A stretch of DNA of 63,816 nucleotides from Candidatus Staskawiczbacteria bacterium (GTDB lineage Bacteria > Patescibacteriota > Minisyncoccia > Minisyncoccales > Staskawiczbacteraceae). Under the pieces are notes generated by a model. That model searched no databases. It was given only the letters and a program-made list of their open reading frames with translations, and had not been told where the DNA came from. Position 1 is the stretch's first letter, and each line of letters starts with the position of its first letter. Position numbers and translations under genes: made by a program. Positions 35,554 to 61,786 of this stretch are shown here, piece by piece. The stretch is from contig JAPLYZ010000011.1 of assembly GCA_026395295.1 (NCBI GenBank), positions 1 through 63,816 on the forward strand, in the 5' to 3' direction.

Positions 35554-35555
35554 CT

Positions 35556-35625: not shown

Positions 35626-35633
35626 ATAAAATA

Positions 35634-35813
35634 ATGCAATATATGTTAACGCCAAAATCAGCAGAAAAAATTCAAGATGAAATTTATTATAATATGCCTT
35701 CTGAGAAAAAGATAAGGCTGACGAGCCAGTTTTTTATGCTTGGTAAAAAATTAAAAGAATCTAAAACAGTTTCAAAAAATGAATCCGGAAGAACTATTAG
35801 CCGAGATAGCTAA
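35634..35813 (+). CDS. Small protein, probable partner of the downstream nucleotidyltransferase
   Basis: 59-aa ORF (..AEKIQDEIYYNMPSEKKIRL..) overlapping the next start; below the ORF-track cutoff. Confidence 0.55.
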   Translation: MQYMLTPKSAEKIQDEIYYNMPSEKKIRLTSQFFMLGKKLKESKTVSKNESGRTISRDS

Positions 35814-36248: not shown

Positions 36249-36256
36249 GTATTTTT

Positions 36257-37273
36257 ATGAATAGGTATCTCAAGATTTTTTTGTTTATCGTTCCAACGAT
36301 TATAATTTTAGTTATTTTTTTGGATGTATTTTCTAAGAACCCTCAGACTGAGGGGTTTTTTACAATTTCAAGAGGAGATAATGTTTTGCAAATTGCCGGT
36401 AATTTGCAAAATAAAGGATATATTACAAGCAGAATAATGTTTGTCTGGCAGGCAGTTGCATCGGGAAATTTAAAAAAAATGAAAGCCGGCAGATATTATA
36501 TAGAAAAAGGTTTAACAGATAAAAATTTGATAGAAAAATTTGTGAAATTTCAGTCCTTGCCCATAAGCGTTTTAATTGCTCCCGGAAAAACCACCAACAA
36601 CATAGCGCAAATTTTAAGCCAGAATTACATAGTTGGCAAAAGCGAGTTTTTGAATTTAGTTTTGAACAACGATAAAAAAAGCTACGCTGAGTTTTATTCT
36701 TCGCTTCTGCAAAAATATGCGTTTTTGTCAGATAAGCCGAAAGATGTTGGGCTTGAAGGTTATTTATTTCCGGATAGTTATCTAATTGATTCTTCGGCTT
36801 CCAGCCAAGACATTGTAAAGCAAATGATGGACAATTTTGACAAAAAGTTGACGCAGGAGATGAGGGAAGAAATAAAAAAACAGAAACGGACAATTTTTGA
36901 AGTTATAACAATGGCGTCAATTTTGGAAAAGGAAGTTAAGACTCAAAAAGATAAACAGGTTGTTGCCGGAGTTTTATGGAAGCGGGCGGACAATGGTTTG
37001 CCTTTGGAAGTTGACTCAACTTTACTATATTTTTTAGCCTCCCAACATCCAAGCGCAATTGATAAGAATGTTGATTCGCCATATAATACATATAAGCATG
37101 CAGGTTTGCCTGTTGGCCCAATTTGCAACCCGGGCATAAACAGTATTTTAGCCGCAATTTATCCTGAAAATTCCGATTATTGGTTTTATTTAAGCGCTCC
37201 CGGCGGAGAGACTATTTTTTCAAAAAATTTAGGTCAGCATTTAATAAACAAAGCAAAATATTTAACTAATTAA
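36257..37273 (+). CDS. mltG: Endolytic transglycosylase MltG
   Basis: LEGYLFPDSY, ASILEKE, SPYNTY...GLPVGPICNPG. Confidence 0.93.
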   Translation: MNRYLKIFLFIVPTIIILVIFLDVFSKNPQTEGFFTISRGDNVLQIAGNLQNKGYITSRIMFVWQAVASGNLKKMKAGRYYIEKGLTDKNLIEKFVKFQSLPISVLIAPGKTTNNIAQILSQNYIVGKSEFLNLVLNNDKKSYAEFYSSLLQKYAFLSDKPKDVGLEGYLFPDSYLIDSSASSQDIVKQMMDNFDKKLTQEMREEIKKQKRTIFEVITMASILEKEVKTQKDKQVVAGVLWKRADNGLPLEVDSTLLYFLASQHPSAIDKNVDSPYNTYKHAGLPVGPICNPGINSILAAIYPENSDYWFYLSAPGGETIFSKNLGQHLINKAKYLTN

Positions 37274-37291
37274 TAACATTAAATTAAAAAT

Positions 37292-40200: not shown

Positions 40201-43200
40201 AACTTCTTCAAAGAGCGAGTATATTTCTAAGGATACAGCAAATTTAGAGGTTGATGCCAATTATTATTTTGGCGCCCCGGTTGATAACTCCGAGGTGAGT
40301 TATACAATCAGCAGCCAAAATTATTATTTTGACAGGTATACCGGCGACGAATGGTTTAATTTTGGATGGTGGGATGACAATTATTATGATTCGGGGTCAT
40401 ACTACTATGGAGACAAATTTATTTCTCGGGGCTCGGGCACAACTGACAAAGACGGCAAATTTAAATTTTCGCAGAAGCTTGATTTGCAGGAAATGCTAAA
40501 GAGCAGTCCTAATCAGGGCAGCAGAATAATAGTTTTAGACTCAACTGTTAAAAATAATTTGGGGCAAAGCGTTTCAGACCAAAAATCATTTATTGTCCAC
40601 GCCGGTAATTATTACATCGGAGTTAAAACAGACCCGTATTTTGTCGGTAAAAATCAGGATTTTAATTTGAAAGTAAAAACAGTTGATACCGAAGGCAAAG
40701 ATGTGGGAGTTGGAAACATAACAGCTGATATTTATGCTGTAAGCTGGGTTTATGCCAAGCGTCAGGAGGTAAGCGGAGCATTTAATTACAATTGGCAGGA
40801 GAAAAAAGATCTTGTTAAAACAATAAACTTTGGCACAGATAATAATGGAAACTGGAGCCAGAAGGTAAAACTAAATAAAGAGGGGCAATATGACATAGAA
40901 CTTTCGTCTCACGACAAAGCAGGAAACGAAATAAAATCTAAAACCAGCATTTATGTTTATGGAGAAGGCCAGGCGACTTTTATGTTTGATGACAGCACAA
41001 GTTTGAGCCTTAAAGCCAACAAGAAAGATCTTAAAGTTGGCGAACAGGGGCAGTTGATTATTGAGTCTCCTTATTCAAAGTCCAAAGCTCTAATTACCAT
41101 TGAACGCGGGAAGATATTTGATTACAAAATAGTTGATTTAACAGGAAATATTTTGGGGTATAATTTTACCGCCACAGATGATTATGCGCCTAATGTTTAT
41201 GTTTCAGTGTTGTTGCAATCGCCCGACCCGGCTGTAAAATTTGCGTCTCAGGAATTTACAGTAAACAGCGACAAATCAAAAATTGACTTGCAGGCGACTT
41301 CAGACAAAAAGTTTTACAACCCCGGGGATAATGTTAATTTGAGTATTGTGGCAAAAGACGCCAGCGGAAAACCGTTGAAAACAGAGGTCTCTGTGGCAGT
41401 TGTTGATTTGAGCGTTTTGGCATTGAAAGGGAATCCCAAAAAAGATCCTTTGGTCTTTTTCTACAATGGTTTCCCGCTTACTGTCTCCACTTCATCTAAC
41501 ATAAAAAATAAAATTGTTAGGATTGAGCCTGCCGACGCGTCAGATAGTAATAACTCTGAAACCAAGGGCGGGGGCGGAGGAGGCGGAGCTGATAATAAAG
41601 TCAGGGGCGATTTTCGAGACACAGCCTTTTGGTCTGCCACTGTGCAAACAGGCGACGATGGCAAAGCTCAGACTTCGTTTAAGCTCCCGGATAACTTAAC
41701 AACTTGGCAGGCAGAAGTTTTGGGCGTGACCAAAGACACAAAATTGGGCGTCGATTATCTTTCATTCCAAAGCAAAAAGGATCTTATGATTGTTCCATTA
41801 AAGCCCAGATTTATTGTTCCGGAAGACACTTTCAGCATTGGCGCCCAAGTGTTCAATCAATCAGACGGAGACAAAACATTTAAAGTTTCTTTCAAGAGCG
41901 ACACATTGCAACCTGCTGACAATAATAAAGAAAAAACAGTCAGGGTGAATAAAGGCGAGCAACAAACCGTGTACTTTGCGGTGAAGGCTCCGGCGAAATT
42001 TTATAGCGGCTCTCATAGCTTTACAATTTCAGCATCTGGCGGAGGATTACAAGATGCTGTAGCTCAAAGCATTGTAATCAGGCAGAATTCTACATATGAG
42101 GTTACAGCAACCGCCGGTTATACGCAGGGAAGTGACGCCAAAGAAGTAATTTATCTGCCATCCAATGTTTCTGCCAACAATGGAGATTTGACAGTCAAAA
42201 GTTCAGCTACCTTGGCGGTGTTTTTGTCCGATGCGTTAAACTATTTGATAAGCTATCCTTATGGATGCTCTGAGCAAATTTCCAGTAAGTTAAAAGCCAT
42301 TGCCATTATTAAAAATGGTTTGAAAATTCCTAATATGGCTGACAAGTTAAAGTTGGAAAAAGTTCTTTACAAAGACAAAGAATATACAATTGACCAGCTG
42401 GTTGATGTCGGGCTGTCTGACCTTTATAAGAACCAAAATGACGATGGCGGATTCAACATGTGGGGGGCAGGAGAATCAAATTATTTTATGACCCTCAGTG
42501 TTGTTGATGCTTTTAATTCTCTCAAGAAAGCCGGCTACACGGTTAATGCCGATGCGTTAAATAACGCGGCGGATTATCTGTTCAGATATTACAATGGTCC
42601 TGACTACAACCTTTCTGACGACGAAAAAATTTCTTTAGCTTCGGTGCTTTTGCAGACAGATGGTTATAGAAACAATGGTAACTTAATGCAAACAGTGAGC
42701 TCCATTATTACCGATGATTCGGCGATCAACGACCAACTAAGCCAGAAAGCGTTGGCCGAGCTTGGAGTTTTGGTTAGCAACAATTCTTTTGGCTCATATG
42801 CTACAACAAGAATTAACAACGCCCTTGATAATAGAATAAATATTGATTCAAGGGGAGCGTTTTTGTCCTTGCGCCAGGATAATTATTATTACGATTACTT
42901 TGAGTCAACAATTGGAGATACCGCCTTGTATCTTAAATCTCTTGCAGACGGGCAGCGCGACACTGCAATAACAGATAAAATAATAAGATGGATTCTTAAC
43001 TCTAAAGATAAAGATGGGGCATGGGGTTCAACGCAAAATACTTTAGCTGTTGTGGAAGCGTTTACAGATTATCTTAATTGGAAAAAAGAAACCGGCGCGG
43101 TTTATACATTAGATACGATTGTTAACGCTAAGAGCGTTGATAAGTTTGCGTTTAACGCTTCTACTATTCTAGAACAAAGCAAACAGGTGATTCCAATAAG

Positions 43201-43759
43201 CTCTTTGAGAGTGAACGATTACAACACTTTAGAACTAAAAAAGACAGGATCGGGGTCTTTGTATTATGATCTTGGCTTAAAATATTATCTTGAAGGAAAT
43301 GTTGAGCCAAGAGACGAGGGGTTCACTATCACGAGGCAGATGTATGCGTTAAGCGATAAATCTGGGAGCAACCCGCTGGCAAAAGCCAAAGCCGGCGACC
43401 TTGTCAGAGAGCACCTGACCATTGTGGCTCCGGTTGAACGTAGGAATGTTCAAATAGAAGACTTTATACCGGCTGGCATGGAAATTGTTGACTTAAGCCT
43501 GGCTACAGAGAGTAAGGACTTGAGATTTAATCAGGTCCAAATAAAAGCTCCTGAAATTTATCCGGACTTCAAAGAGATACGCGACGACAGGGCATACATT
43601 TATACTGCCCAATTAGATCCTGGCGTATACGAGTTTGACTATTATTTGAGAGCCTTGGTGCCTGGCGCTTATTCCCAGTTGCCGGCAGTAGTTTCAGAAA
43701 TGTACACGCCGGAAAATTTTGGCAGAACAGGCAGCGCAACGTTTCAAGTGACAAAATAG
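37292..43759 (+). CDS. Alpha-2-macroglobulin family protein
   Basis: Ig-like N-terminus, TDKPLYRP, FKLPDNLTTW, thioester YPYGCSEQ, WGSTQ, EMYTPE. Confidence 0.93.
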   Translation: MDKNIFRLRNILLGVFCVALISVGLYFFMGSQSGLNISYSENYRLVPEKISQSAAIRISLPKGVDKQLAEKGVTFDPQIKGTWVEGKQTAWWQAQKAIAAITEQKINTNFIVFKPQNSLDLDKYYAVKVDLGQGKILASDFLVAENPKVNAIFPAVNSEAPDNSKITIIFNRPMVPVTTIDQLEGQSIPVEISPATDGKFKWISTNTLQFIPKDHLKRSANYTVKVKNGFTSMDGLAVSNSESSFQVLKLRYADSENYTLIQSQIYNQPVRIYFNQPVDLSKTKSKIKITDGNTNQEIPFVAEYALKTQDETKNNPQYKTGDNFSGGFGFNFVDRLTASLLDIFTGKKGEVDQSIIELYPKKDSFGRSKFWDFNKNYTVTVSGAYSKEGDIALDTSKIIDVRTAGVVNQGSAHSDRTNLASLNLFDPQGYLTLTFFEDINLSKSRITAGNLQKIEYGQKCKDENSYYDPNCEKIQDNKKINIYFKSSEIKPGDKLSVNLEKVVNTGGLQINKDTINIGILTYGPLTISLGDSSKSYSNLDKKYLDGFYLCSNNPLATPDKKEFKQKISGNLDFQINSFSQSWPSSGVSQACPLGTMMTFVRGGFAPESIYNLNLDLNDVFGQNIKKQISFSTGTMEAGSAYAFGLQQRYSVTSPQNAVLNFGAQNVSYVDLAICKASAIDFKQMYDSNIIDSSVCSQYKTKQISLPEKYWVNNYFSVNLADYFTDPIGNYVVSVSNPLLSNYSGKLKNYVTVTNLAVAEKSIAPATDYLGSVEEQLSSQQISSLKNLYWVTDMKTQNPIAGAKISFYDKGGGLLGNATTNSDGLAFSVPSIGADCIVASYGSDSTVVMQNNDQMNWSQSAYNYKKTFIYTDKPLYRPEQTVHAKGILRIGYDGNYEMFSDKTIEVKIRNSKGVIALDKNVDISAFGTFNIDFVLDKNSPLGTYTICVKGSYDCAYFDILEYVPAAFQVSQTSSKSEYISKDTANLEVDANYYFGAPVDNSEVSYTISSQNYYFDRYTGDEWFNFGWWDDNYYDSGSYYYGDKFISRGSGTTDKDGKFKFSQKLDLQEMLKSSPNQGSRIIVLDSTVKNNLGQSVSDQKSFIVHAGNYYIGVKTDPYFVGKNQDFNLKVKTVDTEGKDVGVGNITADIYAVSWVYAKRQEVSGAFNYNWQEKKDLVKTINFGTDNNGNWSQKVKLNKEGQYDIELSSHDKAGNEIKSKTSIYVYGEGQATFMFDDSTSLSLKANKKDLKVGEQGQLIIESPYSKSKALITIERGKIFDYKIVDLTGNILGYNFTATDDYAPNVYVSVLLQSPDPAVKFASQEFTVNSDKSKIDLQATSDKKFYNPGDNVNLSIVAKDASGKPLKTEVSVAVVDLSVLALKGNPKKDPLVFFYNGFPLTVSTSSNIKNKIVRIEPADASDSNNSETKGGGGGGGADNKVRGDFRDTAFWSATVQTGDDGKAQTSFKLPDNLTTWQAEVLGVTKDTKLGVDYLSFQSKKDLMIVPLKPRFIVPEDTFSIGAQVFNQSDGDKTFKVSFKSDTLQPADNNKEKTVRVNKGEQQTVYFAVKAPAKFYSGSHSFTISASGGGLQDAVAQSIVIRQNSTYEVTATAGYTQGSDAKEVIYLPSNVSANNGDLTVKSSATLAVFLSDALNYLISYPYGCSEQISSKLKAIAIIKNGLKIPNMADKLKLEKVLYKDKEYTIDQLVDVGLSDLYKNQNDDGGFNMWGAGESNYFMTLSVVDAFNSLKKAGYTVNADALNNAADYLFRYYNGPDYNLSDDEKISLASVLLQTDGYRNNGNLMQTVSSIITDDSAINDQLSQKALAELGVLVSNNSFGSYATTRINNALDNRINIDSRGAFLSLRQDNYYYDYFESTIGDTALYLKSLADGQRDTAITDKIIRWILNSKDKDGAWGSTQNTLAVVEAFTDYLNWKKETGAVYTLDTIVNAKSVDKFAFNASTILEQSKQVIPISSLRVNDYNTLELKKTGSGSLYYDLGLKYYLEGNVEPRDEGFTITRQMYALSDKSGSNPLAKAKAGDLVREHLTIVAPVERRNVQIEDFIPAGMEIVDLSLATESKDLRFNQVQIKAPEIYPDFKEIRDDRAYIYTAQLDPGVYEFDYYLRALVPGAYSQLPAVVSEMYTPENFGRTGSATFQVTK

Positions 43760-43872
43760 AGAAGCAATATGTGGGCGTTTTATTTTCATCATTTGACCCG
43801 CTTTCACGTTTTTTTGTTGTTCGTGTTTTGACTACCTTGTGGTAAAATTATATGATTAATTAATAAAAGTTT

Positions 43873-45849
43873 ATGGAGAGTAGTTTGGAAAAAAAATTTA
43901 TAATTGATAACAACGGAGCAGTTTTAAACATAGAAAGTACGGCTACTTTTTTGGGTATCTCGACTGCTACAGTTAGAAATTGGGTGAAGTCAGGCTTTTT
44001 GAGAACGATTGATGCGAATACTAAAAATTTTTTTCAGAAACAAGATATAGAAAATGTGAAACTTAGGATTGCAAACGGTGATTTAGAAAAATTAAGCGGA
44101 AGGGCAAACAAGGTGAACGCCGATAAGGTTTTTACACCAAATGAATATATCCATGATAAGGTTAATCTTGATGCGTTAAATTGCGTAGTTGATTTTATAA
44201 AAGATAATAACATAGCTTTATTATCCGCCATTTTTCTCGTTAGTTTGAATTTACTTAAAAAAGAAAAAATTCTGTTAGAAGTAGATATCCACGATATTAT
44301 AGAAAAGAATGATTTGTCTATTGTAAATAACGAAATCGGGAAGGAAATAAAATCGTGGCTTTCAGAAATAGAGGCAAAAAATATGAAAGAGAACTTTTCT
44401 TATCTGCTCAATTGCGATATTCCGAAAGAAAGAGATGTGCTCGGATTTTTGTATCAGTCCCTTTTAGCTGAAGGAGAAAAATCGCAAAGTGGGTCATATT
44501 ATACTCCGGCAAATATAGTTGATAAAATAATATCTGAGCACGTCAAAAAGGATTCTAAGGTTCTTGATCCTTGTTGCGGAACAGGACAATTTTTATTGGC
44601 ATTTTCGGACATTATAGAAAATCCATCGAACATATATGGAATTGATTCTGACGATATCGCGGTCAAAATTGCCAGACTTAATATTTTAATAAAATTTAAA
44701 GACAAAGATTTCATACCAAACATTGTTTGCAAAAATACACTTTCTGATATTGGAAATTACGATTTGTTTAGTTCAAACAACCAAAATATAAAAGATTTTG
44801 ATGTGATAGCGACAAATCCGCCGTGGGGTGCCCATTTTTCTAGTAGAGACATCGAGAGGTTAAAGAAAATATATCCTGAAATAATATCACTAGAATCTTT
44901 TTCATACTTTCTCATAAAAAGCCTTGGTTTACTCCGAAATGGTGGTACAGTCTCTTTTATCTTGCCAGAGTCAATTTTGAATGTAAAAACACACAGAGAT
45001 ATAAGAAAAATTATTTTAAAAAATTTTCAGGTTAAAAAGATTGTTTGTCTCAATAGAGTTTTTAAGAATGTCTTTACTTCTGTTTATAGATTGGATATAG
45101 AAAAGTCTGAAAATAAAGATGGGAACATACAAATCTGTAAAGAAGATGGGGAGCACTACGCCAAACAATCGAGGTGGTTAAATAACAGGGATTTTATTTT
45201 TGATATTCATGCGAATGGAGTTGATACTGAAATAATTGATAAAATATATCGAATAAACCACGTTACCCTAGAGAACAAGGCTGATTGGGCGTTAGGAATA
45301 GTGACGGGCAATAATAAAAAATTTATTGTCAGCGAAGCAAAAGAAGGGTTTGAGCCCATCTATAAAGGAAAAGATGTCGAAAGGTTTGCGCTGAAAGAAA
45401 CTCCAAACTATGTCCAATTTATACCGGAAAAATTTCAGCAGGTTGCCTTGATAGAAAAATATAGAGCGAAGGAGAAACTAATTTATAGATTTATTTCTAA
45501 ATATTTAGTCTTTGCTTATGATAACCATCAGAAATTAACCCTCAATAGTGCCAATATTGTTATTCCTCAAATTCCAGAGTATCCGATGAAAGTGATTGCT
45601 GCCCTGCTCAATTCATCCTTATATCAATTTGTATTTCAAAAGAAGTTTTCAAGCATCAAGGTTTTGAGGAGTCACATAGAGCAAATGCCATTACCACTTT
45701 GGGACAAGAAAACATTTTCTGAAATTGTCGAATTAGTTGATGGAATAATAAAAGGTGAAGATATTTTCGGAAAATTAGATGACTATATCATGAACAAATT
45801 TGAACTCTCGCAAAAAGAGAAAAACTATATTATTAAATTTAATAAATAA
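43873..45849 (+). CDS. Amino (N6-adenine) DNA methyltransferase with N-terminal HTH, TaqI-like
   Basis: GISTATVRNW HTH; GSYYTP, LDPCCGTGQF, NPPW; C-terminal YKGKDV..EKLIYR..LLNS. Confidence 0.88.
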   Translation: MESSLEKKFIIDNNGAVLNIESTATFLGISTATVRNWVKSGFLRTIDANTKNFFQKQDIENVKLRIANGDLEKLSGRANKVNADKVFTPNEYIHDKVNLDALNCVVDFIKDNNIALLSAIFLVSLNLLKKEKILLEVDIHDIIEKNDLSIVNNEIGKEIKSWLSEIEAKNMKENFSYLLNCDIPKERDVLGFLYQSLLAEGEKSQSGSYYTPANIVDKIISEHVKKDSKVLDPCCGTGQFLLAFSDIIENPSNIYGIDSDDIAVKIARLNILIKFKDKDFIPNIVCKNTLSDIGNYDLFSSNNQNIKDFDVIATNPPWGAHFSSRDIERLKKIYPEIISLESFSYFLIKSLGLLRNGGTVSFILPESILNVKTHRDIRKIILKNFQVKKIVCLNRVFKNVFTSVYRLDIEKSENKDGNIQICKEDGEHYAKQSRWLNNRDFIFDIHANGVDTEIIDKIYRINHVTLENKADWALGIVTGNNKKFIVSEAKEGFEPIYKGKDVERFALKETPNYVQFIPEKFQQVALIEKYRAKEKLIYRFISKYLVFAYDNHQKLTLNSANIVIPQIPEYPMKVIAALLNSSLYQFVFQKKFSSIKVLRSHIEQMPLPLWDKKTFSEIVELVDGIIKGEDIFGKLDDYIMNKFELSQKEKNYIIKFNK

Positions 45850-45852
45850 TCT

Positions 45853-46596
45853 ATGGAAATTTTGAAAAAAGATATAGAACAATTGATTGAGCGATTGCCA
45901 AATAACGACAAGGAGAAATTACGAAGTAATCTCAGAGATTTAATGTCGGTATACCCTTTCAATGAATATGAGTATATCATTTCGAACTTATTAGGATTGG
46001 ACAGAATAACTCTTGCGGATTATCTCAAGATTAGAGGAGAATATCTGATAAGGAACGAATATGTACATATTTATGAAAAATATGGATCTCCGACAGCGTT
46101 TGGAATTACGTGGGCGCAATCACATGTCCATGCTATTGTTCCTGAAATGAAAAAGCCCACAAAAAAAGAACACCCAGATTTTGATAACGAGTATGACTTT
46201 TTTTATAACTATAAAAAGAGTCATATCAAGATAGAGGTAAAAGCATCCAGGGCAGTCGATGCAAAAAGTGATGAGCCACTTTATGTTAAAGCTCTTGCAT
46301 GGAATTCCAAAAAACCATTTGATATGAATTTTCAGCAGATAAAACCAAGTAGTTGTGATGTTTTTATCTGGGTCGCCGTTTGGCGGGACACAATAAAATA
46401 CTGGGTTTTCGCTTCAAAAGATATAGAAAATAATAAGTATTATTCAAGGGGACAACACAGAGGGAATATAGGAGAAGGTCAACTTCATCTAAATCAAACT
46501 AATATAAAAGAATTTGCCAAGTACGAGGCTCAGCCAAAAGATTTACTTGAAAGAATTATTAAAGCATATAAAAGACAGATTTTAAAAATTGATTGA
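45853..46596 (+). CDS. Putative restriction endonuclease (PD-(D/E)xK)
   Basis: EYD...IEVKASRA, NFQQIK; starts 3 nt after the MTase stop. Confidence 0.7.
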   Translation: MEILKKDIEQLIERLPNNDKEKLRSNLRDLMSVYPFNEYEYIISNLLGLDRITLADYLKIRGEYLIRNEYVHIYEKYGSPTAFGITWAQSHVHAIVPEMKKPTKKEHPDFDNEYDFFYNYKKSHIKIEVKASRAVDAKSDEPLYVKALAWNSKKPFDMNFQQIKPSSCDVFIWVAVWRDTIKYWVFASKDIENNKYYSRGQHRGNIGEGQLHLNQTNIKEFAKYEAQPKDLLERIIKAYKRQILKID

Positions 46597-46604
46597 GGAA
46601 TAAT

Positions 46605-48725
46605 TTAATTGGTCTGTTTTATAAATCGCACGGTTATTGTTTCGTTTTGCGATTTAGAGGAGGCTGTTATTTCATAACTGCCTTCTTTTTTTGGAGCAAA
46701 AAATATTTTTTGCTTACCCGTTGTGGTTTCAGCAAAGGCGGGGCCAATGATTTTCCAGTCGGAGACGTCTTTTGCCTCCAGCGAAATTTCTACGCCAGGG
46801 GTAAAAATAAAAACATCGTCATCGTGCGGATTTAGGATGAAAGATTTGTCCTGATTCTCTATAATGTTTTCAGATTTTTTAAAATCATCATTTGCTAAGC
46901 CATATTCAATTCCATTTTTGCCCTGGTATTCTTTTATATCTGAAAAATCAAACTGCGAATTTTGGTTATATTCTGAATTGAGCATCAGTTGCATAACCTC
47001 ATTCCAAATTCTGCCGGCTCCAGTTTGTCCGGAAACTGCATCAGTCGGCGAGTTGTCTGCATTTCCCACCCACACGCCAACCAAAAAATCAGGAGTGTAT
47101 CCGACTATCCAACTGTCAATGTAGTCGTGAGAGGTCCCGGTTTTTAAAGCATAATTTTTTGCTTGCAAATTCAGCGAGCTTTCAGCTCCAAATTGGTCTA
47201 TGCCGGTTTTTCGGTCGCTCAAAATTTTATTTATAAGTTCTACATATTTTTTTGGCGCCACGTCTTTATTTTGGTAAGGGAAATAATTATTATTTATAGA
47301 TCCATCGGTAAATATTTTCAACCCGTTGAGTTTTCCTTGGTTTGGGAAAATTGAGAAATAATGGGTGAGGTCCAGCAAGTTCATTTCTAAATTTCCCAAG
47401 GCGATTCCAAGCTGGTATTGGTCAATTGGTTGTATGGTTTTATACCCCAGGTCTTCTGTTAAAAATTTGTTAAAATTATCTATGCCTGCAAATTCAAGCG
47501 TTTTTACAGCTGCAACATTAATGCTGTTGTCTAGGGCATAATGCGCGGTCATTAAGCCGTGATATTTGAAGTCATAATTTTTAGGATAAATTGGGTATCC
47601 GCCCGGTCCTAAGTATTTGTATTCTCGGTCGTCAATTAATGTGTATGGCCTCATTCCATTTTCAAAGCCAAGCAGATAAATGAACGGCTTAACTGTTGAG
47701 CCAATCTGCCTGGGTTGCAAAGACATGTCAATTTTGTAACCATCGGAAAAAGAGCTTGGGTCAGGCGAACCGATCAACGCCAGCACTTGGTTGTCTTTTG
47801 CTGATAAAATTACGACAGCCGCATTTTTTGCTTTTTTATTTTTCAAAACATCAATGTTTGACGACACTATGTCTCTGATATTTTTCATTAGTCGGCTGTC
47901 AACTGTCAATTGCAGGTTTTTGTTAACATTGCCGGAAAGGTATGGAGCCAGTTCTAAAATTGGCTGGTTTTTATAAACGTAGTTCTGTATATTTTTTTGG
48001 CAATCTTCAGGTTGTGTAAAATTATTGTTTTTTACCCCCAGCGAAGCAGACAAAATCTTAGATTTTTCTATGTTTGCTGAGCCAGCTGGATTATAATCGG
48101 TTGGACTGCTCAATGTCGCAAGCAATTGAACAATTTGCCCGGTGGTTAAGTTTTGCGGAGCAACATTAAAATATGCTTTGCCGGCAGATCTTATTCCCTG
48201 CAATTGGCTGCCGAAATAAACAGAGTTGGCATACATCTCCAAAATTTTCTCTTTGCTATTAAACGTTTCCAATGCCAGTGTGTAAAAAGCCTCTTTTATT
48301 TTATTGTTTATGTTTCTTTGATTCTCCTCCTGTAAAAGTATTTTTGTAAGTTGCTGGCTTATTGTGCTGGAAGCCTTTCTCTGAGACAACCCCAGCTTGT
48401 TTCCAACAGCCTCAAAAATGCTCAAAAAATTGAAACCAAAATGCCAATAAAAATATTTATCTTCTTTTTCTATCAGTAATTTTTTAAAATTATCGGGAAC
48501 CGGGGCAGAGTATTCGGCGTAATAGCCCTTCGGGTTCTTTGAGATTAAAATAACGTTGTTATTTCTGTCAGTTACAGAAAAAGATTGGTTAGAGTTATAG
48601 CTGTTTGTTAACTCTGTGTTCAGAGCATATAGTAAAATATACAAAAACAAAAACGCACCCAAAATTAGCGCAATCACAGTTTTGTGCCGGCGTGCGGTTT
48701 TTTTTATTTGTTCGAATAATTTCAT
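46605..48725 (-). CDS. pbpC: Penicillin-binding protein 1C-like bifunctional PBP
   Basis: EDKYF, ASSTISQQ, STVK, SIN, KTGT; located near a2M. Confidence 0.85.
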   Translation of the reverse strand: MKLFEQIKKTARRHKTVIALILGAFLFLYILLYALNTELTNSYNSNQSFSVTDRNNNVILISKNPKGYYAEYSAPVPDNFKKLLIEKEDKYFYWHFGFNFLSIFEAVGNKLGLSQRKASSTISQQLTKILLQEENQRNINNKIKEAFYTLALETFNSKEKILEMYANSVYFGSQLQGIRSAGKAYFNVAPQNLTTGQIVQLLATLSSPTDYNPAGSANIEKSKILSASLGVKNNNFTQPEDCQKNIQNYVYKNQPILELAPYLSGNVNKNLQLTVDSRLMKNIRDIVSSNIDVLKNKKAKNAAVVILSAKDNQVLALIGSPDPSSFSDGYKIDMSLQPRQIGSTVKPFIYLLGFENGMRPYTLIDDREYKYLGPGGYPIYPKNYDFKYHGLMTAHYALDNSINVAAVKTLEFAGIDNFNKFLTEDLGYKTIQPIDQYQLGIALGNLEMNLLDLTHYFSIFPNQGKLNGLKIFTDGSINNNYFPYQNKDVAPKKYVELINKILSDRKTGIDQFGAESSLNLQAKNYALKTGTSHDYIDSWIVGYTPDFLVGVWVGNADNSPTDAVSGQTGAGRIWNEVMQLMLNSEYNQNSQFDFSDIKEYQGKNGIEYGLANDDFKKSENIIENQDKSFILNPHDDDVFIFTPGVEISLEAKDVSDWKIIGPAFAETTTGKQKIFFAPKKEGSYEITASSKSQNETITVRFIKQTN
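46712..46742 (-). repeat. Degenerate family A palindrome, in-frame in pbpC (PAFAETTTGK)
   Basis: Reverse complement CCCGCCTTTGCTGAAACCACAACGGGTAAGC. Confidence 0.6.
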
Positions 48726-48894
48726 GTTGGTCTATTATAGCAAATATCCTTGTTTTTATTAAATTATGAATCTATTGTCTTTTTGTTTAGTTTGACGTAG
48801 TATGTAGTTTGGTAGAGTCAAGCCTATGTTTGGCTCCACCTGCACGTTGAAAACTAAGCTGAAACACAACAGCAACCAGAAAGTGAGACGCGAG

Positions 48895-50481
48895 ATGAAT
48901 ATTCTTGATTTATTTTCCAAAACAGTTGATGACGTAATAACCGGTGCTGCTGCCCGCAACATGTTGGTGGATAACCCCTCGGAGAGCGAGCTGAGGCAAC
49001 TTGTGGCGCGCCAACCCGGGGTCAAGCAGACCAGATACGGGAGTTTTGTAGTTGAAAGCGGACCCTCATCAAGGGCGGCAATGTTTACCAAGAACAGCGT
49101 CGACAGCCATTTTGGCGACGACGAAGAACGCCTTTTGGCGGAAGCAATAGGTGTCTTATCCAAAGAGCGGATAATTTCTCTGGACCGAGTAGTCGGCGAC
49201 GGCAGCACAGGCACAACGGTTAGATTAGTCGTGCCCGAAAGGTTCGCCCATATTGCTTTGGGAGGTAATCTTTTTCTGCCGCCAGCTGTGTCGGTTAAAA
49301 GTCCGACTTACAATATCTTATTTTTCGCAGACAATGCTTTTGAGGAAAACAGGGCAAAACCTCTTCCTAGGAAAGACATCACCATCAGGTTGGCGATGCT
49401 TCCCGGAGGCAAGTTTGTAAAAGTGGTCAGGAATTCCAATTACATTGGAGAGTACAAGAAGGGCGTTTTCGCGGCCGAGAACTGGGCAACCAAGACTATC
49501 CGGGGCGGAATTTTTTTGCACGCCGGTTGTCGAGAGGATCGCCTTCAAAACGTTCATGGCGACTTTGTCCTTTCAAGGACTCTTCTCGTAGCCCTGAGTG
49601 CCAATGGGAAGACCACAACCACCTGCAGAATTCTTGCCAGAAAAGGCATGGAAGAGTCATGGATGGTCCAGGACGACGGCGGGTCTTTAATGCCCGATGG
49701 TTCTTTCCATGGTTTTGAGGGCGGCGGCATCTTCGTTAAAACTGAACGCGTCAATCCGGGCGAGCAAACCGAAATATTCTACGGCCTGTTGCGTCCCGAA
49801 ACTGTACACGAAAACGTCTGGGTCTCCGAGCAAGGATGCTTGGATTTTGACAATGTGGAAATAACCTCAAACGGGAGGGCGGTTGTCCGCAGGGAACACC
49901 TCATGCATGCCAGCCCGCATATTGGGGTTGAGAGAATCGACAACCTGATTCTTATTACCAGGGGACCTTTGATTCCGGCTATTTCAAAGTTGACGTTGGA
50001 GCAGGCGACTGCTTTGATGATTCTGGGCCAGGCGATGGAGTCGTCAGCTGGAGACCCCACCAAAGCCGGTCAAATTCGAAGCGAGTTTTTCTACGACCCG
50101 TTCGTCATTGGGAGTCGCATTGAGCACGCCAATATTTTCTACCGGATTTTGAAGGGCTTACCGTATAAGATTAACTGCTACTTGTTGAACACGGGCTGGA
50201 TTGGAGAGGGTGAGCATTACAGAAATATCACCCTGCAAGATACCATGGGCATCCTGGATTCTCTGCTTCGCGGAGGTCTGGAAGACTGGACAACTTCTCC
50301 TACCGGCCTGCTGGTGCCAAAAGCCGTGAGAACGGTTGATAGCACTTGTTTTCATCCCGAGAAACACTATTCCGTGGCTGAATTCATGGAAAAACAAAAG
50401 GCTCTTAATGCAGTCAGGCGAGGAGCCATCGAGAAGTTCCAGGGGCAGCTGGACTTCAGCGCCGAGGAGCTGTTCCAATAA
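48895..50481 (+). CDS. pckA: Phosphoenolpyruvate carboxykinase (ATP-type), divergent
   Basis: NYIGEYKKG, LHAGC, LSANGKTT, QDD, FEGG, ENV, TSNGRA, YLLNTG. Confidence 0.85.
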   Translation: MNILDLFSKTVDDVITGAAARNMLVDNPSESELRQLVARQPGVKQTRYGSFVVESGPSSRAAMFTKNSVDSHFGDDEERLLAEAIGVLSKERIISLDRVVGDGSTGTTVRLVVPERFAHIALGGNLFLPPAVSVKSPTYNILFFADNAFEENRAKPLPRKDITIRLAMLPGGKFVKVVRNSNYIGEYKKGVFAAENWATKTIRGGIFLHAGCREDRLQNVHGDFVLSRTLLVALSANGKTTTTCRILARKGMEESWMVQDDGGSLMPDGSFHGFEGGGIFVKTERVNPGEQTEIFYGLLRPETVHENVWVSEQGCLDFDNVEITSNGRAVVRREHLMHASPHIGVERIDNLILITRGPLIPAISKLTLEQATALMILGQAMESSAGDPTKAGQIRSEFFYDPFVIGSRIEHANIFYRILKGLPYKINCYLLNTGWIGEGEHYRNITLQDTMGILDSLLRGGLEDWTTSPTGLLVPKAVRTVDSTCFHPEKHYSVAEFMEKQKALNAVRRGAIEKFQGQLDFSAEELFQ

Positions 50482-50565
50482 AGTTGTTTTTCAGAAACAA
50501 AGGGTGAGACATAAGTCAAACCCTCTTTTTTTATATTTTATTATTTGATATAATAACACAATAAT

Positions 50566-51297
50566 ATGTCTAGCAGAAATAAAAAAATATTTTCTTCACG
50601 CGGGCTTTGGTTTATTGTTGCAGGGTTTTTTGTTTTTACGTTGGCAATTGTCGCATTTGCCAATTTTTATCCAGTCCCTTCTGGTCTGTCAACCGTTTCT
50701 GCAATCAAAGATGCTGCCGTGCCATCGCAGAACAGTCTTTTGCAGTTTACCTCGCAAGGAACTGTTATTGGTTTTCAAAACACAGGAATCATTGTTGCCT
50801 CTCCTACGCATATGCTTAGAGTTGATTTTGTGAACTCAAATTCTGTTGCGCCGGAATCAGCCGGTGGGGGATCTGCCGCCCCGGAATCGTTGATGACTCT
50901 GCCAAACTCCGAGAAAGCAGCTCCACTCACCAAAGTTACATACCGCAATGTTTGGAATGGTATAGATATAACCTACGAAGCCAGCAAAGATTCTTTGATG
51001 AAGAGTACCTATTTTGTAAATCTGAAAGAAAGCGATAAAAGCATTTCTTCAAATAATATTATTTTAAAATACAATCGTCCTCTTTCTTTAGATAAAAACA
51101 AGAATCTTGTAATTAAATATGACCTTGGCACAATTACTGAATCGGCTCCCTTGGCTTGGCAAATAATAAACGACAAAAAAGTTCCGGTGCCAATATCTTT
51201 TTTAATCAAGAGCCAATATGAAGTCGGTTTTACCCTTGGCAAATACACGCCAAACATTCCAATTATCATAGACCCTATTTATAAACGTGTTTTCTAA
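50566..51297 (+). CDS. Secreted protein matching the N-terminal domain of SBBP-repeat proteins
   Basis: VTYRNVWNGIDITY, ESAPLAWQ, VGFTLGKY..PIIIDP. Confidence 0.65.
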   Translation: MSSRNKKIFSSRGLWFIVAGFFVFTLAIVAFANFYPVPSGLSTVSAIKDAAVPSQNSLLQFTSQGTVIGFQNTGIIVASPTHMLRVDFVNSNSVAPESAGGGSAAPESLMTLPNSEKAAPLTKVTYRNVWNGIDITYEASKDSLMKSTYFVNLKESDKSISSNNIILKYNRPLSLDKNKNLVIKYDLGTITESAPLAWQIINDKKVPVPISFLIKSQYEVGFTLGKYTPNIPIIIDPIYKRVF

Positions 51298-51318
51298 AAC
51301 TTATCCACAGGTTGATGC

Positions 51319-51351
51319 TTGTGCGGGGGGGGGGTATTAGTGTGATATAAT
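51319..51351 (+). promoter_or_regulatory. Promoter with a G10 tract upstream of an extended -10
   Basis: TTGTGC-G10-TATTAGTG-TGA-TATAAT, ending 6 nt before the ATG. Confidence 0.55.
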
Positions 51352-51357
51352 AAATTA

Positions 51358-53295
51358 ATGATTAAACGTTTAAAGATTAAAATCTCCGTAGCGCTATGCT
51401 TTACCGGTTTTTTGCTACTTGGATTTGCCAATCACGCCAGCGCGACAACTTACACATGGAATCCTTTTTTGGGAGGGAGTGGGGGTGATGTTAGTTATGG
51501 AGTTACTGTAGATACCAGCGGAAATGTTTATGCCGTGGGATACAGTGATACAACATGGGGCTCGCCTATCAGGGGATATTCTGCACAAGAAGATGCATTT
51601 GTCGCCAAACTTAGCAGTACGGGTTCTATTGTATGGAATACTTTCTTGGGAGGAAGCGGGTATGATGATGGTTATGGAATTGCAGTAGATTCCAGTGGAA
51701 ATGTTTATGTTACGGGAAAAAGCGATGGAACATGGGGTTCTCCGATTGTTGAACCGACTGGTGGTAATAATTATTTTATCGCTAAACTTAATGTCACGGG
51801 TTCTCTTGTTTGGAATACGTTTTTAAGTAACACTAACGTGCCACAAACCACTGCAATTTCATTAGACACGAGCGGAAACATTTATGTTGTCGGAAGCGCA
51901 AGCAGTACGTGGGGATCTCCGATATTACCATGGATATCAGCACAGTACAGTTATGCTTTTGCTGCTAAGCTCAGCAATAATGGGAATTTAATTTGGAATA
52001 CTTTCTTTGGCGGTGGTACGAGAAAATATAATTATGGTAAAGGGGTTGTGGTGGATAGTAGCGGTAATATTTATATTATTGGATATGGTAACGCAACATG
52101 GGGTACGCCAGTAAGAATATATGCTGCCAATCAGGATGCCTGGGTGGTAAAATTAACTAATACGGGTACTCTTGCATGGAGTACTTTCTTGGGAGGAAGC
52201 GGAAATGATTATGGCGCTGGAGTTGCTGTGGATGGCACCGGGAATGTTTATGTTGCTGGGTATAGTGATGCAACATGGGGCTCGCCATTACAATTGTATA
52301 ATTCTAGCAATGATATTTTTGTCGCTAAATTGGATAGCGCAGGGACTATGACATGGAATACTTTTTTGGGAGGAATCCAGGGTGATATTGGAACAGGAAT
52401 TATTTTGGACAATAGTAACAGTGTTTATATTACTGGGTACAGCAATGCCACTTGGGGATCACCATTACGGGCATATTATGGGCAGGCTGCTACCACTGAT
52501 GTTTGTGTTGCTAAACTCAACAACAGTGGTAGTTTACTTTGGAATACATTTTTAGGTGATAGTGGGTCTGATAAAGGTCAAGCGATTGTATCAGATACCA
52601 CCGGGAATATTTATGTTGGTGGAGTCAGTAGTGCTACATGGGAATCTCCGCCGATAGCTCATACTGTAGGAGCCAGCAATGATGCTTATGTTGCCAAACT
52701 CACCAGCGCAGGCGCCCTAGTCACCATAACAACCTCCCACACCATCACAGCCTCAACAGTAAACAGCAATGGCTCTATTACCCCAACAGGAGCCACCACT
52801 GTAGACGACGGCGCAAACCAGACATTCACGATATCAGCCAACGACCCCTACACAACCAACGTCATAGTAGACGGAGCATCACAAGGCCCGCTAACCACCT
52901 ACACCTTTACCAACGTAACCACCAACCACACCATTTTAGCTGACTTCTCGCTAGTGCTTGGAGCAGGTGGAGGAGCAAGTGCAAGCGCATCCAGCGGAAC
53001 AAGCGTGTCCAGTGGAACATCCACCTCTGCCACAAGCTCAACGTCAGACAGCAGTTCACAACCACCAGCTCCTTCTGCCGATGTCCCAACCCCAACCGTA
53101 ACACCGCCACCAACACCGACACCGGATTTAACAAGCTTGCCTCCGGCAACACCCGACGTTACCGCTATCTCAACACCGGGAAACAATACAACATTCACTG
53201 CCGCTGTTATTGTTCAAATCAAACAACAGCTCATAGCTCTCATCACCCAGCTAATTGGAATACTTCAACAGCAATTTATCCAGATGGGGAAGTAA
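51358..53295 (+). CDS. SBBP-repeat (beta-propeller) surface protein with Ig-like domain and S/P/T-rich tail
   Basis: Seven repeats of WNTFLGG..D.G.GIAVD.SGNVYV.G.S..TWGSP; signal peptide. Confidence 0.85.
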   Translation: MIKRLKIKISVALCFTGFLLLGFANHASATTYTWNPFLGGSGGDVSYGVTVDTSGNVYAVGYSDTTWGSPIRGYSAQEDAFVAKLSSTGSIVWNTFLGGSGYDDGYGIAVDSSGNVYVTGKSDGTWGSPIVEPTGGNNYFIAKLNVTGSLVWNTFLSNTNVPQTTAISLDTSGNIYVVGSASSTWGSPILPWISAQYSYAFAAKLSNNGNLIWNTFFGGGTRKYNYGKGVVVDSSGNIYIIGYGNATWGTPVRIYAANQDAWVVKLTNTGTLAWSTFLGGSGNDYGAGVAVDGTGNVYVAGYSDATWGSPLQLYNSSNDIFVAKLDSAGTMTWNTFLGGIQGDIGTGIILDNSNSVYITGYSNATWGSPLRAYYGQAATTDVCVAKLNNSGSLLWNTFLGDSGSDKGQAIVSDTTGNIYVGGVSSATWESPPIAHTVGASNDAYVAKLTSAGALVTITTSHTITASTVNSNGSITPTGATTVDDGANQTFTISANDPYTTNVIVDGASQGPLTTYTFTNVTTNHTILADFSLVLGAGGGASASASSGTSVSSGTSTSATSSTSDSSSQPPAPSADVPTPTVTPPPTPTPDLTSLPPATPDVTAISTPGNNTTFTAAVIVQIKQQLIALITQLIGILQQQFIQMGK

Positions 53296-53362
53296 AAAGC
53301 TGAGGGTAAAAATGGGTTCTAGGTCTGGACAAGGGTGCTTGTTGATGATAAAATAGAGCAAT

Positions 53363-53782
53363 ATGGATAACAATAAAGAACTAGCCAACATAAACGATAA
53401 GTTGATAGATTTAGAGTTAGCCAAAAGCGACAATAAGAACTCAAAAGTCAGGAAATACCTGCCGGCAGTAGTGCTGGTGGCTTCATTCTATTATTCCTTT
53501 CTTTTGGCTCTGGGATTAGCTCTGGGGTATATCGGCGCTAAAATTTTCTCTAAATATTTGCTTGAAAACGGCAAAGTTGACTGCATTTACATTGACTGCG
53601 GTAAATACAAAATTCACTTACACCACTGGATTTTGGGGGCGTTGTTGTTATTGGCTGTATGGGTTATTGACTATTTCTATCTTCCAAGATTTTTCGTCGG
53701 GGTTGTTGCCGGTGTCATTGCTCACGACATTTACGACTTTAACGATTGGCACAAAATTTTAGTAAAAAACGAGACAAAATAA
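53363..53782 (+). CDS. Membrane hypothetical protein
   Basis: Hydrophobic; HLHHW motif. Confidence 0.65.
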   Translation: MDNNKELANINDKLIDLELAKSDNKNSKVRKYLPAVVLVASFYYSFLLALGLALGYIGAKIFSKYLLENGKVDCIYIDCGKYKIHLHHWILGALLLLAVWVIDYFYLPRFFVGVVAGVIAHDIYDFNDWHKILVKNETK

Positions 53783-53856
53783 AGTTGTTGAAAATTAGAG
53801 CACAATGCGGCGAAAGCCGCATTTTAATTTATGGAATTATGTGATATGATGGAAGT

Positions 53857-54897
53857 ATGGTAGAGATAGATATAGAAAATAAAGGAGCGAGAGTTATTTT
53901 TTTAAGAAAAGGCGACCAGAAAGCTTTTTTGGATGGGGTGCAATCTAAGTTAGACATAGGACTTGAAGATTTTTCAAAAATCGCTGGGGTTTGCATTAGG
54001 TCTATGACTGACTGGAAAAGAGAAAAAAATTCCGTTTCCTTGTCTGGGTTGGAAGCGCTATGCAACATCGCTGAAGTTGATTTTCCGAAAGATGTTGAAA
54101 TAAGAGATAGATTTTGGTATATACATAAAGGGGCAAGAGCCGGAGGCTTAGCTACATTCAAAAAATATGGCAGAATTGGAAACGAAAATTATCGTAGGAA
54201 GAAATGGTTTGAATGGTGGGAGAAAAAAGGAAAATTTAATCCAAATCAATATTTTGCGCAAAAAAACATATTTTTACCAAAAAAATCCGTTCAGTTGGCA
54301 GAGTTTATAGGAATTATTTTGGGCGATGGAGGGATAACAAAAAGCCAAGTTTCAATAACGCTTAATAAAATAACTGATTTGGAATTTTCTTTTTATGTAA
54401 AGAAGTTGATCAACGACCTTTTTGATGTGAAAGCGGCGACATATAATCACGGGGTTGATTGTGTAGTAAATATAGTGATTTCCAGAATTCAACTTGTTAA
54501 ATTTTTACAAGAAACTGGGTTAAAAATAGGCAACAAGGTAAAACAACAAGTTGGTGTTCCGGCATGGATTTCTAAATCAGGCTTATTTACAAAATTTTGC
54601 ATGAGAGGTTTATTGGATACGGACGGATGTTTCTATGTGGATAAACATAAATACAAAGATAAAATTTATTTAAACAGCGGTATAAATTTTACAAACAGAT
54701 CCTTGCCACTTCTTAATTTTTTTAAAGACAATTTAACAAAATTTGGCTTTCACCCTACACAAAAGACAAAATTTAGTATATTCTTAAGACGTGAAGAAGA
54801 AGTTATCAGATATTTCAAGGAAATAGGGTCTTCAAACCCTAAACACTTAAACAAGTTCAAAAGATATTTTAACGATAAATCTGGAGGAGTCGGATAA
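53857..54897 (+). CDS. Free-standing double-motif LAGLIDADG endonuclease-like protein
   Basis: LAEFIGIILGDGGI and CMRGLLDTDGCF; last 15 nt lie inside tRNA-Ser. Confidence 0.85.
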   Translation: MVEIDIENKGARVIFLRKGDQKAFLDGVQSKLDIGLEDFSKIAGVCIRSMTDWKREKNSVSLSGLEALCNIAEVDFPKDVEIRDRFWYIHKGARAGGLATFKKYGRIGNENYRRKKWFEWWEKKGKFNPNQYFAQKNIFLPKKSVQLAEFIGIILGDGGITKSQVSITLNKITDLEFSFYVKKLINDLFDVKAATYNHGVDCVVNIVISRIQLVKFLQETGLKIGNKVKQQVGVPAWISKSGLFTKFCMRGLLDTDGCFYVDKHKYKDKIYLNSGINFTNRSLPLLNFFKDNLTKFGFHPTQKTKFSIFLRREEEVIRYFKEIGSSNPKHLNKFKRYFNDKSGGVG

Positions 54898-54966
54898 TGG
54901 CATTCCACCGCTCTCGAAAAGCGGCGCCCAGCAATGGGCTTGTGAGTTCAAGTCTCACCTCCTCCG
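54883..54966 (+). tRNA. tRNA-Ser(CGA)
   Basis: GGAGGAG/CTCCTCC acceptor, CCGCT CT CGA AA AGCGG, long variable arm, G73. Confidence 0.95.
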
Positions 54967-54982
54967 CTTAAAAAATAAAAAT

Positions 54983-55681
54983 ATGTCATGGTTAAATAAA
55001 CTCATAGCACTTACCTACAATCCTAAATTCAGGATGCCCTTTTTCTTGTCGCCATTTTTAGGGATGATTTTTGGTGATATTGGAACAATTATCATGATTA
55101 AAATGGGTTTCCCCAACCCCAAGTTTGCAATCCCTGTTTTTATTGCAATAGGTTATTTCATTCTCTGGATAATAATTATGTACGTGCGTCTTTACAACTA
55201 CATTGGAGAAGACGGAAAATTGCAGAAAAAAACTTTCGTTAAAAACACCCAAGTTTATGATAGGTTCAGACAAGAAGCCAGAAAATATGATTGGATGGTG
55301 AAGGAAATCCCAAAAGTACCTCTATTAATGGATTATGGATTCACGATAAAGGGGGTCGAGCAGGGAGTTGCTTTTGAAATAGCAATGATAGATAATTTTT
55401 CAAATGCTGGAGGATTTAGTGAAAGAGCTGTTTATATTAAAACAAAAAAAGGAGAAAATTTTGAAATATCGCCAGCCAATGCTGTTAAGAATCAATTTGT
55501 TGAGGCGAATAGGGAAGACCTCAATTATTTGATGAGAAATAATAAATATATTACAAAAATAAGTTTCTATAAGGGACAAATGGCAGCATTAATTTTTGAT
55601 TATATAGGCATGTCTTCAAATGTAAAAGAGGTAGTATCTAGGCTTATACAAATATCGAAGAGTTACGACGGGCTTTATTAA
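54983..55681 (+). CDS. Membrane hypothetical protein
   Basis: Two N-terminal TM helices; 232-aa ORF. Confidence 0.6.
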   Translation: MSWLNKLIALTYNPKFRMPFFLSPFLGMIFGDIGTIIMIKMGFPNPKFAIPVFIAIGYFILWIIIMYVRLYNYIGEDGKLQKKTFVKNTQVYDRFRQEARKYDWMVKEIPKVPLLMDYGFTIKGVEQGVAFEIAMIDNFSNAGGFSERAVYIKTKKGENFEISPANAVKNQFVEANREDLNYLMRNNKYITKISFYKGQMAALIFDYIGMSSNVKEVVSRLIQISKSYDGLY

Positions 55682-55750
55682 AATTTTTTTTAATCTTTAA
55701 ATTTTAGGTGGCGTTGGTTTGAGCAAATCGACGCTTTTTTTGGGAAAATT

Positions 55751-61699: not shown

Positions 61700-61704
61700 G
61701 CGTG

Positions 61705-61786
61705 TGCTCTCGGTGGGACTCGAACCCACAAGCTGTGAAGCATACGCACCTCAAGCGTACGTGTATACCAGTTCCACCACGAGAGC
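61705..61786 (-). tRNA. tRNA-Leu(GAG)
   Basis: TACGC TT GAG GT GCGTA; long variable arm. Confidence 0.95.

Follow-up and report, generated by a model that had tools for sequence, protein, structure and literature searches.

Most known free-standing homing endonucleases come from phages and organelles. Proteins which combine a LAGLIDADG fold with a helix-turn-helix (HTH) domain and are free-standing in bacterial chromosomes are represented by WhiA, a conserved, catalytically dead regulator that carries its HTH at the C-terminus. Endonuclease genes located among tRNA genes have been described as well. SegB of T4 is a free-standing GIY-YIG homing endonuclease which recognises a T-arm motif and cuts at tRNA 3' ends, and a cleavage between the last codon and the stop codon of segB during tRNA-Arg maturation was proposed as a way of damping (PMC2330249). 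Beside the long tRNA arrays of cyanobacteria, HNH genes such as all8564 are located upstream of the tRNAs, are co-regulated with them and were proposed to spread them (PMC8421152). In the Patescibacteria, LAGLIDADG genes have been reported from rRNA introns, and the spacers of rRNA operons are described as carrying homing endonucleases (PMC7143001, PMC11809585 and PMC8172020). No description of a LAGLIDADG family linked to tRNA-Ser was found in a literature search whose coverage lay mostly outside subscription journals.

The gene P0001 apparently belongs to such an undescribed family of tRNA-locked, free-standing LAGLIDADG genes. It is located in the window analyzed here, i.e., the whole stretch of 63,816 nt of contig JAPLYZ010000011.1 from a Candidatus Staskawiczbacteria bacterium, whose genome (0.9 Mb, 97.6% complete) contains one called tRNA-Ser(CGA) and P0001 as its one family member (Table 1). 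As in the case of segB, a free-standing endonuclease gene is found among tRNA genes; segB shares a transcript with tRNA, and its product cleaves the DNA of tRNA genes and is mobile together with the neighbouring tRNAs (PMC2330249); for P0001 co-transcription and cutting are predicted. In contrast to SegB, P0001 belongs to a chromosomal family which is confined to the 5' end of a single tRNA type, shows its signals in the D-arm and has no match in 50,697 phage records, and its nuclease domain is LAGLIDADG instead of GIY-YIG. The T4 seg/mob enzymes cut hundreds to thousands of bases away from their genes (PMC2988022), whereas the site inferred here would lie within ~30 bp, on a cell chromosome. 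P0001 shares with all8564 the position of an endonuclease gene 5' of tRNA genes in a cellular genome, but the all8564 type is an HNH gene beside accessory multi-tRNA arrays, while the P0001 type is located on single resident tRNA genes at native loci. From WhiA it differs by its patchy occurrence, its retained active site and the position of the HTH in front of the nuclease domain. The family does not have the characters of WhiA, and weak matches to PF14527 occur in only 10 of 134 homologues.

Table 1. Features of the P0001 locus (positions in the window)
Feature	Position	Strand	Description
Membrane-type ORF	53363..53782	+	139 aa; native upstream neighbour marking the locus
Terminator-like hairpin and T run	53804..53826 (hairpin 53804-53823)	+	Predicted to insulate the unit from upstream transcription
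Extended -10 and spacer	53842..53856	+	TG-A-TATGAT (53842-53850), 6-nt spacer GGAAGT; predicted leaderless start at the ATG
ORF P0001	53857..54897	+	346 aa; XRE-like HTH and monomeric double-LAGLIDADG
XRE/Cro-like HTH	53902..54099	+	Residues ~16-81; structure match Z 7-9 to Aca10, CapH, ImmR and C proteins
Double-LAGLIDADG domain	54277..54885	+	Residues ~141-343; D157 (54325), K227 (54535), D256 (54622)
Overlap of ORF and tRNA	54883..54897	+	15 nt; last four codons and stop = tRNA positions 1-15
tRNA-Ser(CGA)	54883..54967	+	ARAGORN call; single called copy in the assembly
ORF without known family	54983..55681	+	232 aa; 15 nt 3' of the tRNA; no Pfam match
Terminator-like hairpin	55710..55741	+	Predicted end of the ORF-tRNA-ORF unit

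The preliminary description of this DNA, made from the letters alone, had reported an ORF that ends inside a tRNA-Ser and is preceded by an extended -10, and both features were confirmed. The ORF terminates with GGA GGA GTC GGA TAA within the tRNA, which was also recognised by Rfam at 54883-54966 (RF00005, 50.3 bits, E 1.8e-9), although it was missing from the whole-window Rfam run at the gathering cut-off. An indel error hiding an earlier stop had been named as a possible refutation. Such an error, or an assembly error, is unlikely, since the region shows 0 differing letters in the assembled contigs of five runs (X3, X4, X6, X7 and X8), of which four may themselves be sources of this DNA and X8 comes from the same study as X7, so that the runs are not independent, and since 36 of 102 homologues likewise overlap their tRNA. 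No terminator-like site was called between the tRNA and the 232-aa ORF, which is possibly on the same transcript; no copy of this ORF was detected in the 60 relatives searched with it, nor in the other loci fetched. In one metatranscriptome, exact contigs cover 54898-55046 and regions farther downstream and none covers the ORF; these are assembled contigs with possible DNA carry-over, and the gap is uninformative on expression or transcript ends. The distance from tRNA-Arg(CCT) to tRNA-Ser(CGA) is ~650-1100 nt in many genus-mates, and in the window ~18 kb (35554-53363) lie between tRNA-Arg(CCT) and the 139-aa gene, a spacing that points to an insertion or rearrangement.

The P0001 protein contains the two motifs GIILGDG (D157) and GLLDTDG (D256) and matches PF14528 above the cut-off (E 4.6e-10). 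Its structure model, built with a 134-row alignment, has a pLDDT of 94, and the LAGLIDADG domain of the model, which most resembles I-Tsp061I and intein endonucleases, aligns with I-Tsp061I at Z 20.5 and an rmsd of 2.8 Å over 186 residues (Foldseek E 2.2e-11). A sequence search of solved structures gave 0 matches at E up to 1. I-Tsp061I, TliVMA, PI-PfuI and I-DmoI share with P0001 the fold (Z 16-20.5), the two catalytic aspartates and the conserved lysine; these enzymes are intron- or intein-encoded, whereas P0001 lacks a splicing element and carries an XRE-like HTH at its N-terminus. With two LAGLIDADG helices in an alpha-beta-beta-alpha-beta-beta-alpha fold, an acidic residue at the end of either motif and a basic residue, P0001 is by its structure a monomeric two-motif LAGLIDADG endonuclease, for which cutting is predicted. 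By Pfam the HTH is weak (HTH_26, E 0.051); HTH_3 was matched in 37 of the 134 homologues, and the structure model resembles XRE-type HTHs, as the preliminary description had suspected when it noted an HTH-like N-terminus in front of two LAGLIDADG motifs. This domain is possibly an autorepressor or a second grip on the DNA. D157, D256 and K227 are intact in 133 of 134 aligned representatives and in 109 of 110 locus-derived rows. A dN/dS of 0.10-0.23 was obtained for 13 of 15 hand-picked close pairs, the other two being saturated, and split or frameshifted copies were found at 8 distinct loci. The Rfam scan of the window revealed no intron family, and no intein family reached the cut-off in Pfam or NCBIfam, the latter giving only weak matches, below the cut-off, to intein-bearing proteins in their endonuclease part. 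As no splicing element was found and both the tRNA and the upstream gene are whole, P0001 is not of the intron- or intein-encoded type, which bears out the absence of intein termini and intron context noted before.

The family comprises 354 clusters at 50% identity (E up to 1e-30). Homologues occur in records named Candidatus Moranbacteria and Saccharibacteria, and the named members seen are annotated as hypothetical. For the analysis of gene neighbourhoods, the loci L001-L175 scoring at least 280 bits were used, which gives 110 loci after removal of 9 duplicates; their metagenome part consists of the best 80 of 452 confirmed relatives. A same-strand tRNA-Ser directly follows the ORF at 104 of these 110 loci, five end at a contig end and one shows no tRNA; such adjacency is far beyond chance. 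Among 13 further loci of the phylum, 12 are linked to tRNA-Ser and one to tRNA-Tyr. The survey of homologues proposed earlier thus revealed the expected linkage to tRNAs, but the notion of an endonuclease homing to tRNA 5' boundaries in general has to be narrowed to tRNA-Ser, with only sister clades at other tRNAs. These sister clades are located before tRNA-Tyr(GTA) (L168, L170-L173, L175, L354), before tRNA-Gln(CTG) (L017) and just after tRNA-Leu(CAA) (L018, L020, L025, L026). The sole full-length copy without a tRNA behind it (L010, genome G014) has a tRNA-Ser(GCT) on its other side, pointing away, an arrangement which suggests a rearrangement.

The gene is patchily distributed: within the class, 23 of 301 genomes carry it, and within the phylum 17 of 401 (strict cut-offs, sister clades included). 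In a FastTree phylogeny the clades track the anticodon (14 changes vs 49.6 in shuffled data) and a separate Tyr clade is formed. Copies from the genus of P0001 are spread over four distinct clades, of which two occupy the same GCT locus, and P0001 itself clusters with CGA-linked genes of other families, while its genus-mates carry GGA-linked and two kinds of GCT-linked genes. The gene tree is therefore unlike the host grouping, the nearest relatives of P0001 being found in other families, as expected for horizontal spread (both from FastTree, with no AU test). Phages were considered as the main carriers, but neither phage records nor viral contigs gave any sign of this: no match was found in 50,697 records of annotated phages, and of 13 loci in viral contigs one is a close relative before tRNA-Ser(GGA), the others being weak and within long ORFs. 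A close homologue in a record titled Nanoarchaeota (L001) is probably mis-binned, as its contig is 1.8 kb long and has a promoter of bacterial type, and its score of 410 bits compares with a maximum of 191 in 300 genomes of that phylum.

Empty alleles, whose identification had been proposed as a check, were found both at the CGA locus of the genus and at a GCT locus. tRNA-Ser(CGA) is present in 23 of 25 genus-mates; all 23 lack the ORF, and 21 of them retain a homologue of the 139-aa gene 5' of the tRNA (56-90% identity). The usual empty allele consists of a hairpin, a -10 box (typically an extended -10), 8-9 nt and the tRNA, with a hairpin comparable to that of the window ahead of the tRNA promoter in many cases. 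In the window, the hairpin and the extended -10 are followed by 6 nt, the ATG, 1 kb and the tRNA. The ORF thus fills the 5' leader of the tRNA, as it lies between promoter and tRNA where genus-mates typically have 8-9 nt. In a pair of sister species, one filled (G007) and one empty (G013) at the GCT locus, the tRNA-Ser(GCT) genes are 98.9% identical; the blastn match across the tRNA starts at +1, and the filled allele has an extended -10 in place of the -35/-10 of the empty one. The coexistence of filled and empty alleles of a locus in related genomes, together with an own promoter and start codon and no intron or intein, are the characters of a free-standing homing gene. A relative co-occurring in the same samples carries the gene at the same locus with ~83% identity in gene and flank; the window allele is therefore neither unique nor necessarily recent, and this copy also fits long vertical inheritance. 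No convincing match to decayed remnants was detected before empty alleles, and metagenome contig joints that skip the ORF came from other organisms, with low likeness and no exact boundary.

Upstream of the start codon, the motif TAnnnT is present at a distance of 6 nt in 68 of 101 homologues, accompanied by TG in 49 and followed by GGA in 46. Among 672 ORFs of the host, TGnTAnnnT-6-ATG occurs in 20, compared to 0-11 at other spacings. This arrangement, which is family-wide and normal for the host, points to a leaderless mRNA. Shine-Dalgarno-like words are not enriched before the ORFs of the host genome G000 (39 vs 48 in the upstream background, 672 ORFs). An explanation of this promoter as just the former tRNA promoter proved only partly right, since the pair G007/G013 shows a replacement and the GGA-spacer motif recurs throughout the family.

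Two architectures can be distinguished. Overlap types make up 36 of 102 members (mostly CGA, TGA and GGA), whereas the other 66, including 58 GCT members, stop before the tRNA (gap types). By a simple in-house score, a -35 (TTG-type) and a -10 (TAnnnT) precede the tRNA at 40 of 66 gap-type but only 3 of 36 overlap-type loci. In 48 of the 66 gap types the -10 is located 2 nt after the stop codon, and a 17-nt spacer leads to a TTG within the last codons 47 times. An antisense promoter at the ORF end of GCT members was considered and dropped, as a sense -35/-10 fits better. Gap-type members thus appear to provide the tRNA with a promoter in their last codons, whereas overlap types, including P0001, would make the tRNA from the nuclease transcript. 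RNase P cuts at tRNA position +1, which in the overlap type would leave a non-stop message; RNase P RNA (rnpB), RnpA, tmRNA and SmpB were all found in the host. Removal of the stop codon by RNase P, which the preliminary description had put forward, cannot be a trait of the whole family, given the 66 members that stop before the tRNA, but it is predicted for the overlap types as they rarely have a separate tRNA promoter. It is not a new idea, since it was already proposed for segB (PMC2330249), and processing did not prevent the mobility of segB or segG (PMC2988022). T4 seg/mob genes take the place of host promoters and carry substitutes for them within their coding region, favouring retention, and the gap types appear to be alike in this respect (PMC2988022).

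In addition, the tRNAs linked to family members were compared with those of empty alleles. The canonical D-arm start TGGCYGA is present in 4 of 63 linked but 38 of 61 unlinked tRNA-Ser(GCT) genes, the latter from 60 genomes hand-chosen out of 150 listed rows. In nine families with both states, the canonical D-arm was found in 0 of 9 linked and 14 of 29 empty alleles (shuffle probability 0.006; as kin are not independent, this and the other p values are overstated), and in three of four same-genus pairs the empty allele is canonical and the filled one altered. The tRNA-Ser(CGA) of the window has only 79.8% identity to its nearest genus-mate, the lowest of 24, compared to a median nearest-neighbour identity of 97.6%. 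Both this tRNA and the linked GGA tRNA of G010 have a D-arm and an anticodon stem unlike every empty allele, while their acceptor strands have a match. Positions 8-14 are the most variable in Ser(CGA) and Ser(GCT), with identities of 0.58 and 0.64, respectively, vs 0.71-1.0 in ten other tRNAs. Whereas the target had been placed at the tRNA 5' boundary, this signal favours a site within the D-arm region no less than one at the boundary. An alteration of the D-arm is not a requirement, as the tRNAs of G007 and G013 are 98.9% identical and the linked D-arm of G024, like that of G007, is also found in empty alleles. Family f72 shows the opposite trend. Four linked tRNAs with a canonical D-arm are located next to enzymes with intact D/D/K, so that dead enzymes were rejected as an explanation of such partners, and L344 is a fifth canonical case. 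Altered D-arms could thus represent hitch-hiking donor tRNAs instead of resistant ones.

The tRNAs of the genus are variable in general, and many isoacceptors occur in several distinct sequence types. In the window, tRNA-Leu(GAG) (61704-61786, minus strand) is an outlier of the genus too, with 73% identity to the nearest of 6 genus-mates and no adjacent nuclease gene. The genus shows many different rearrangements of the Ser(GCT)/Ser(TGA)/Arg(GCG) cluster, and the contig of L298 (G087) carries two different tRNA-Ser(GCT) genes 6 kb apart.

Taking both possible positions of its target site together, P0001 is probably a homing nuclease. This reading rests on the placement between promoter and tRNA, the empty alleles, the retention of both catalytic aspartates, the patchy polyphyletic spread and the divergent tRNA. 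We give about an even chance to P0001 being a chromosomal free-standing homing endonuclease in the tRNA-Ser(CGA) leader that is predicted to cut the 5' third (D-arm region) of empty tRNA-Ser genes. When DNA with and without the gene meets, e.g., after DNA uptake, the enzyme would make a double-strand break, and repair by RecA would copy the gene together with part or all of the changed tRNA, which would be resistant to recutting; RecA and ComEC are present in the host. The insertion would be nearly cost-free to the host, since RNase P would trim the 1-kb leader. In the overlap allele one leaderless transcript would serve both nuclease and tRNA, and cleavage by RNase P at 54883 would lead to a stop-less message and tmRNA tagging, keeping the enzyme scarce. 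Imprecise loss of the cassette would remove the tRNA promoter, so that retention would be favoured. The large family on cell chromosomes, with a target gene named by position, makes specificity testable with short substrates. It also suggests frequent DNA exchange among uncultured small-genome bacteria, offers a cause for the variable tRNA-Ser genes in such bacteria and for odd archaeal tRNA introns, and represents a pool of new monomeric meganuclease scaffolds.

A homing nuclease might instead recognise a site which straddles the promoter or leader and the first tRNA bases and is destroyed by the insertion, the D-arm differences then being co-converted donor sequence. The match of G007 and G013 beginning at tRNA +1 and the replaced promoter agree with this, as do the shared GG(A/T)G starts of the four Ser isoacceptors in a family that stays on Ser, and intron-encoded enzymes cut no more than 25 bp away from their insertion (PMC2988022). 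We nevertheless regard a boundary site as unlikely, because the sequence 5' of empty tRNAs is poorly conserved except for the -10, gap types rebuild a -10 shortly before the tRNA and so resemble an empty allele, and the archaeal D-loop inserts described below would stay unexplained. Anticodon-tracking clades are also expected from allele exchange at one locus, and P0001 could be a passenger, i.e., an old endonuclease gene before tRNA-Ser that is moved by ordinary homologous recombination at tRNA hot spots and does not cut there. Both flanks of tRNA-Ser(CGA) bear variable cargo across the genus, and the tRNA types are scattered over the host infB tree (11 changes, 17 genomes). We consider this very improbable, as it does not account for the position of 104 of 110 copies within tens of bases of +1 and leaves the jumps among Ser isoacceptors only, the kept active sites and the same placement in archaea unexplained.

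Purifying selection and the ~83% identical gene of the co-occurring relative would also be compatible with a gene that serves the host, either a domesticated WhiA-like binder controlling tRNA-Ser or a toxic nuclease restrained by tRNA processing and freed on phage attack or stress. The combination of HTH and LAGLIDADG fold matches WhiA at Z 15.7-17.4, and expression of the overlap types would be tied to RNase P. Against this, most relatives are without the gene, several distant lineages of it occur in one genus, the catalytic residues, which WhiA does not have, are invariant, the HTH is N-terminal and not C-terminal as in WhiA, and 66 of 102 members have no overlap. A host function therefore appears improbable to us, and the homing reading with a target in the D-arm region is preferred.

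When 301 genomes of the phylum to which a record titled Nanoarchaeota belongs were searched with the profile, 71 contained distant relatives, a tally which includes G730 (whose close copy is probably mis-binned) and the unpublished genome G975, the DNA of which was left out of the analysis. For 51 of the best-scoring archaeal loci (L358-L408), ARAGORN allowing introns placed a tRNA within 150 nt of the stop codon on the same strand in 20 cases and on the opposite strand in 9, compared to 0 in shuffles. In the 40 archaeal loci scanned with Rfam many of the tRNAs were confirmed and several with inserts were missed. The partners belong to many tRNA types, and overlaps of 10-16 nt are found repeatedly. 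Inserts in the D-loop are present in 5 of 13 archaeal tRNAs linked at their 5' end vs 1 of 58 others, which come largely from ten of the same genomes (Fisher p 5e-4); a looser parser, used without a matching control, found them in 9 of 21 linked loci. These inserts agree with the D-arm shift in bacteria, because an insert would break a site in that region. Tentatively, and with more doubt than confidence, a cross-domain class of chromosomal homing endonucleases can be envisaged, in which tRNA 5' leaders would serve as a neutral home, RNase P would take the role of the intron and the D-arm DNA would be cut. In the Patescibacteria such enzymes would drive the turnover of tRNA-Ser D-arms, and in the Nanoarchaeota group the resistant alleles would be tRNAs with D-loop introns. 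If this is true, nucleases would be a driving force behind non-canonical archaeal tRNA introns. The archaeal relatives adjoin their tRNAs in two ways, in the same orientation at the tRNA 5' end or convergently across its 3' end, and most of the convergent tRNAs carry inserts in the anticodon region.
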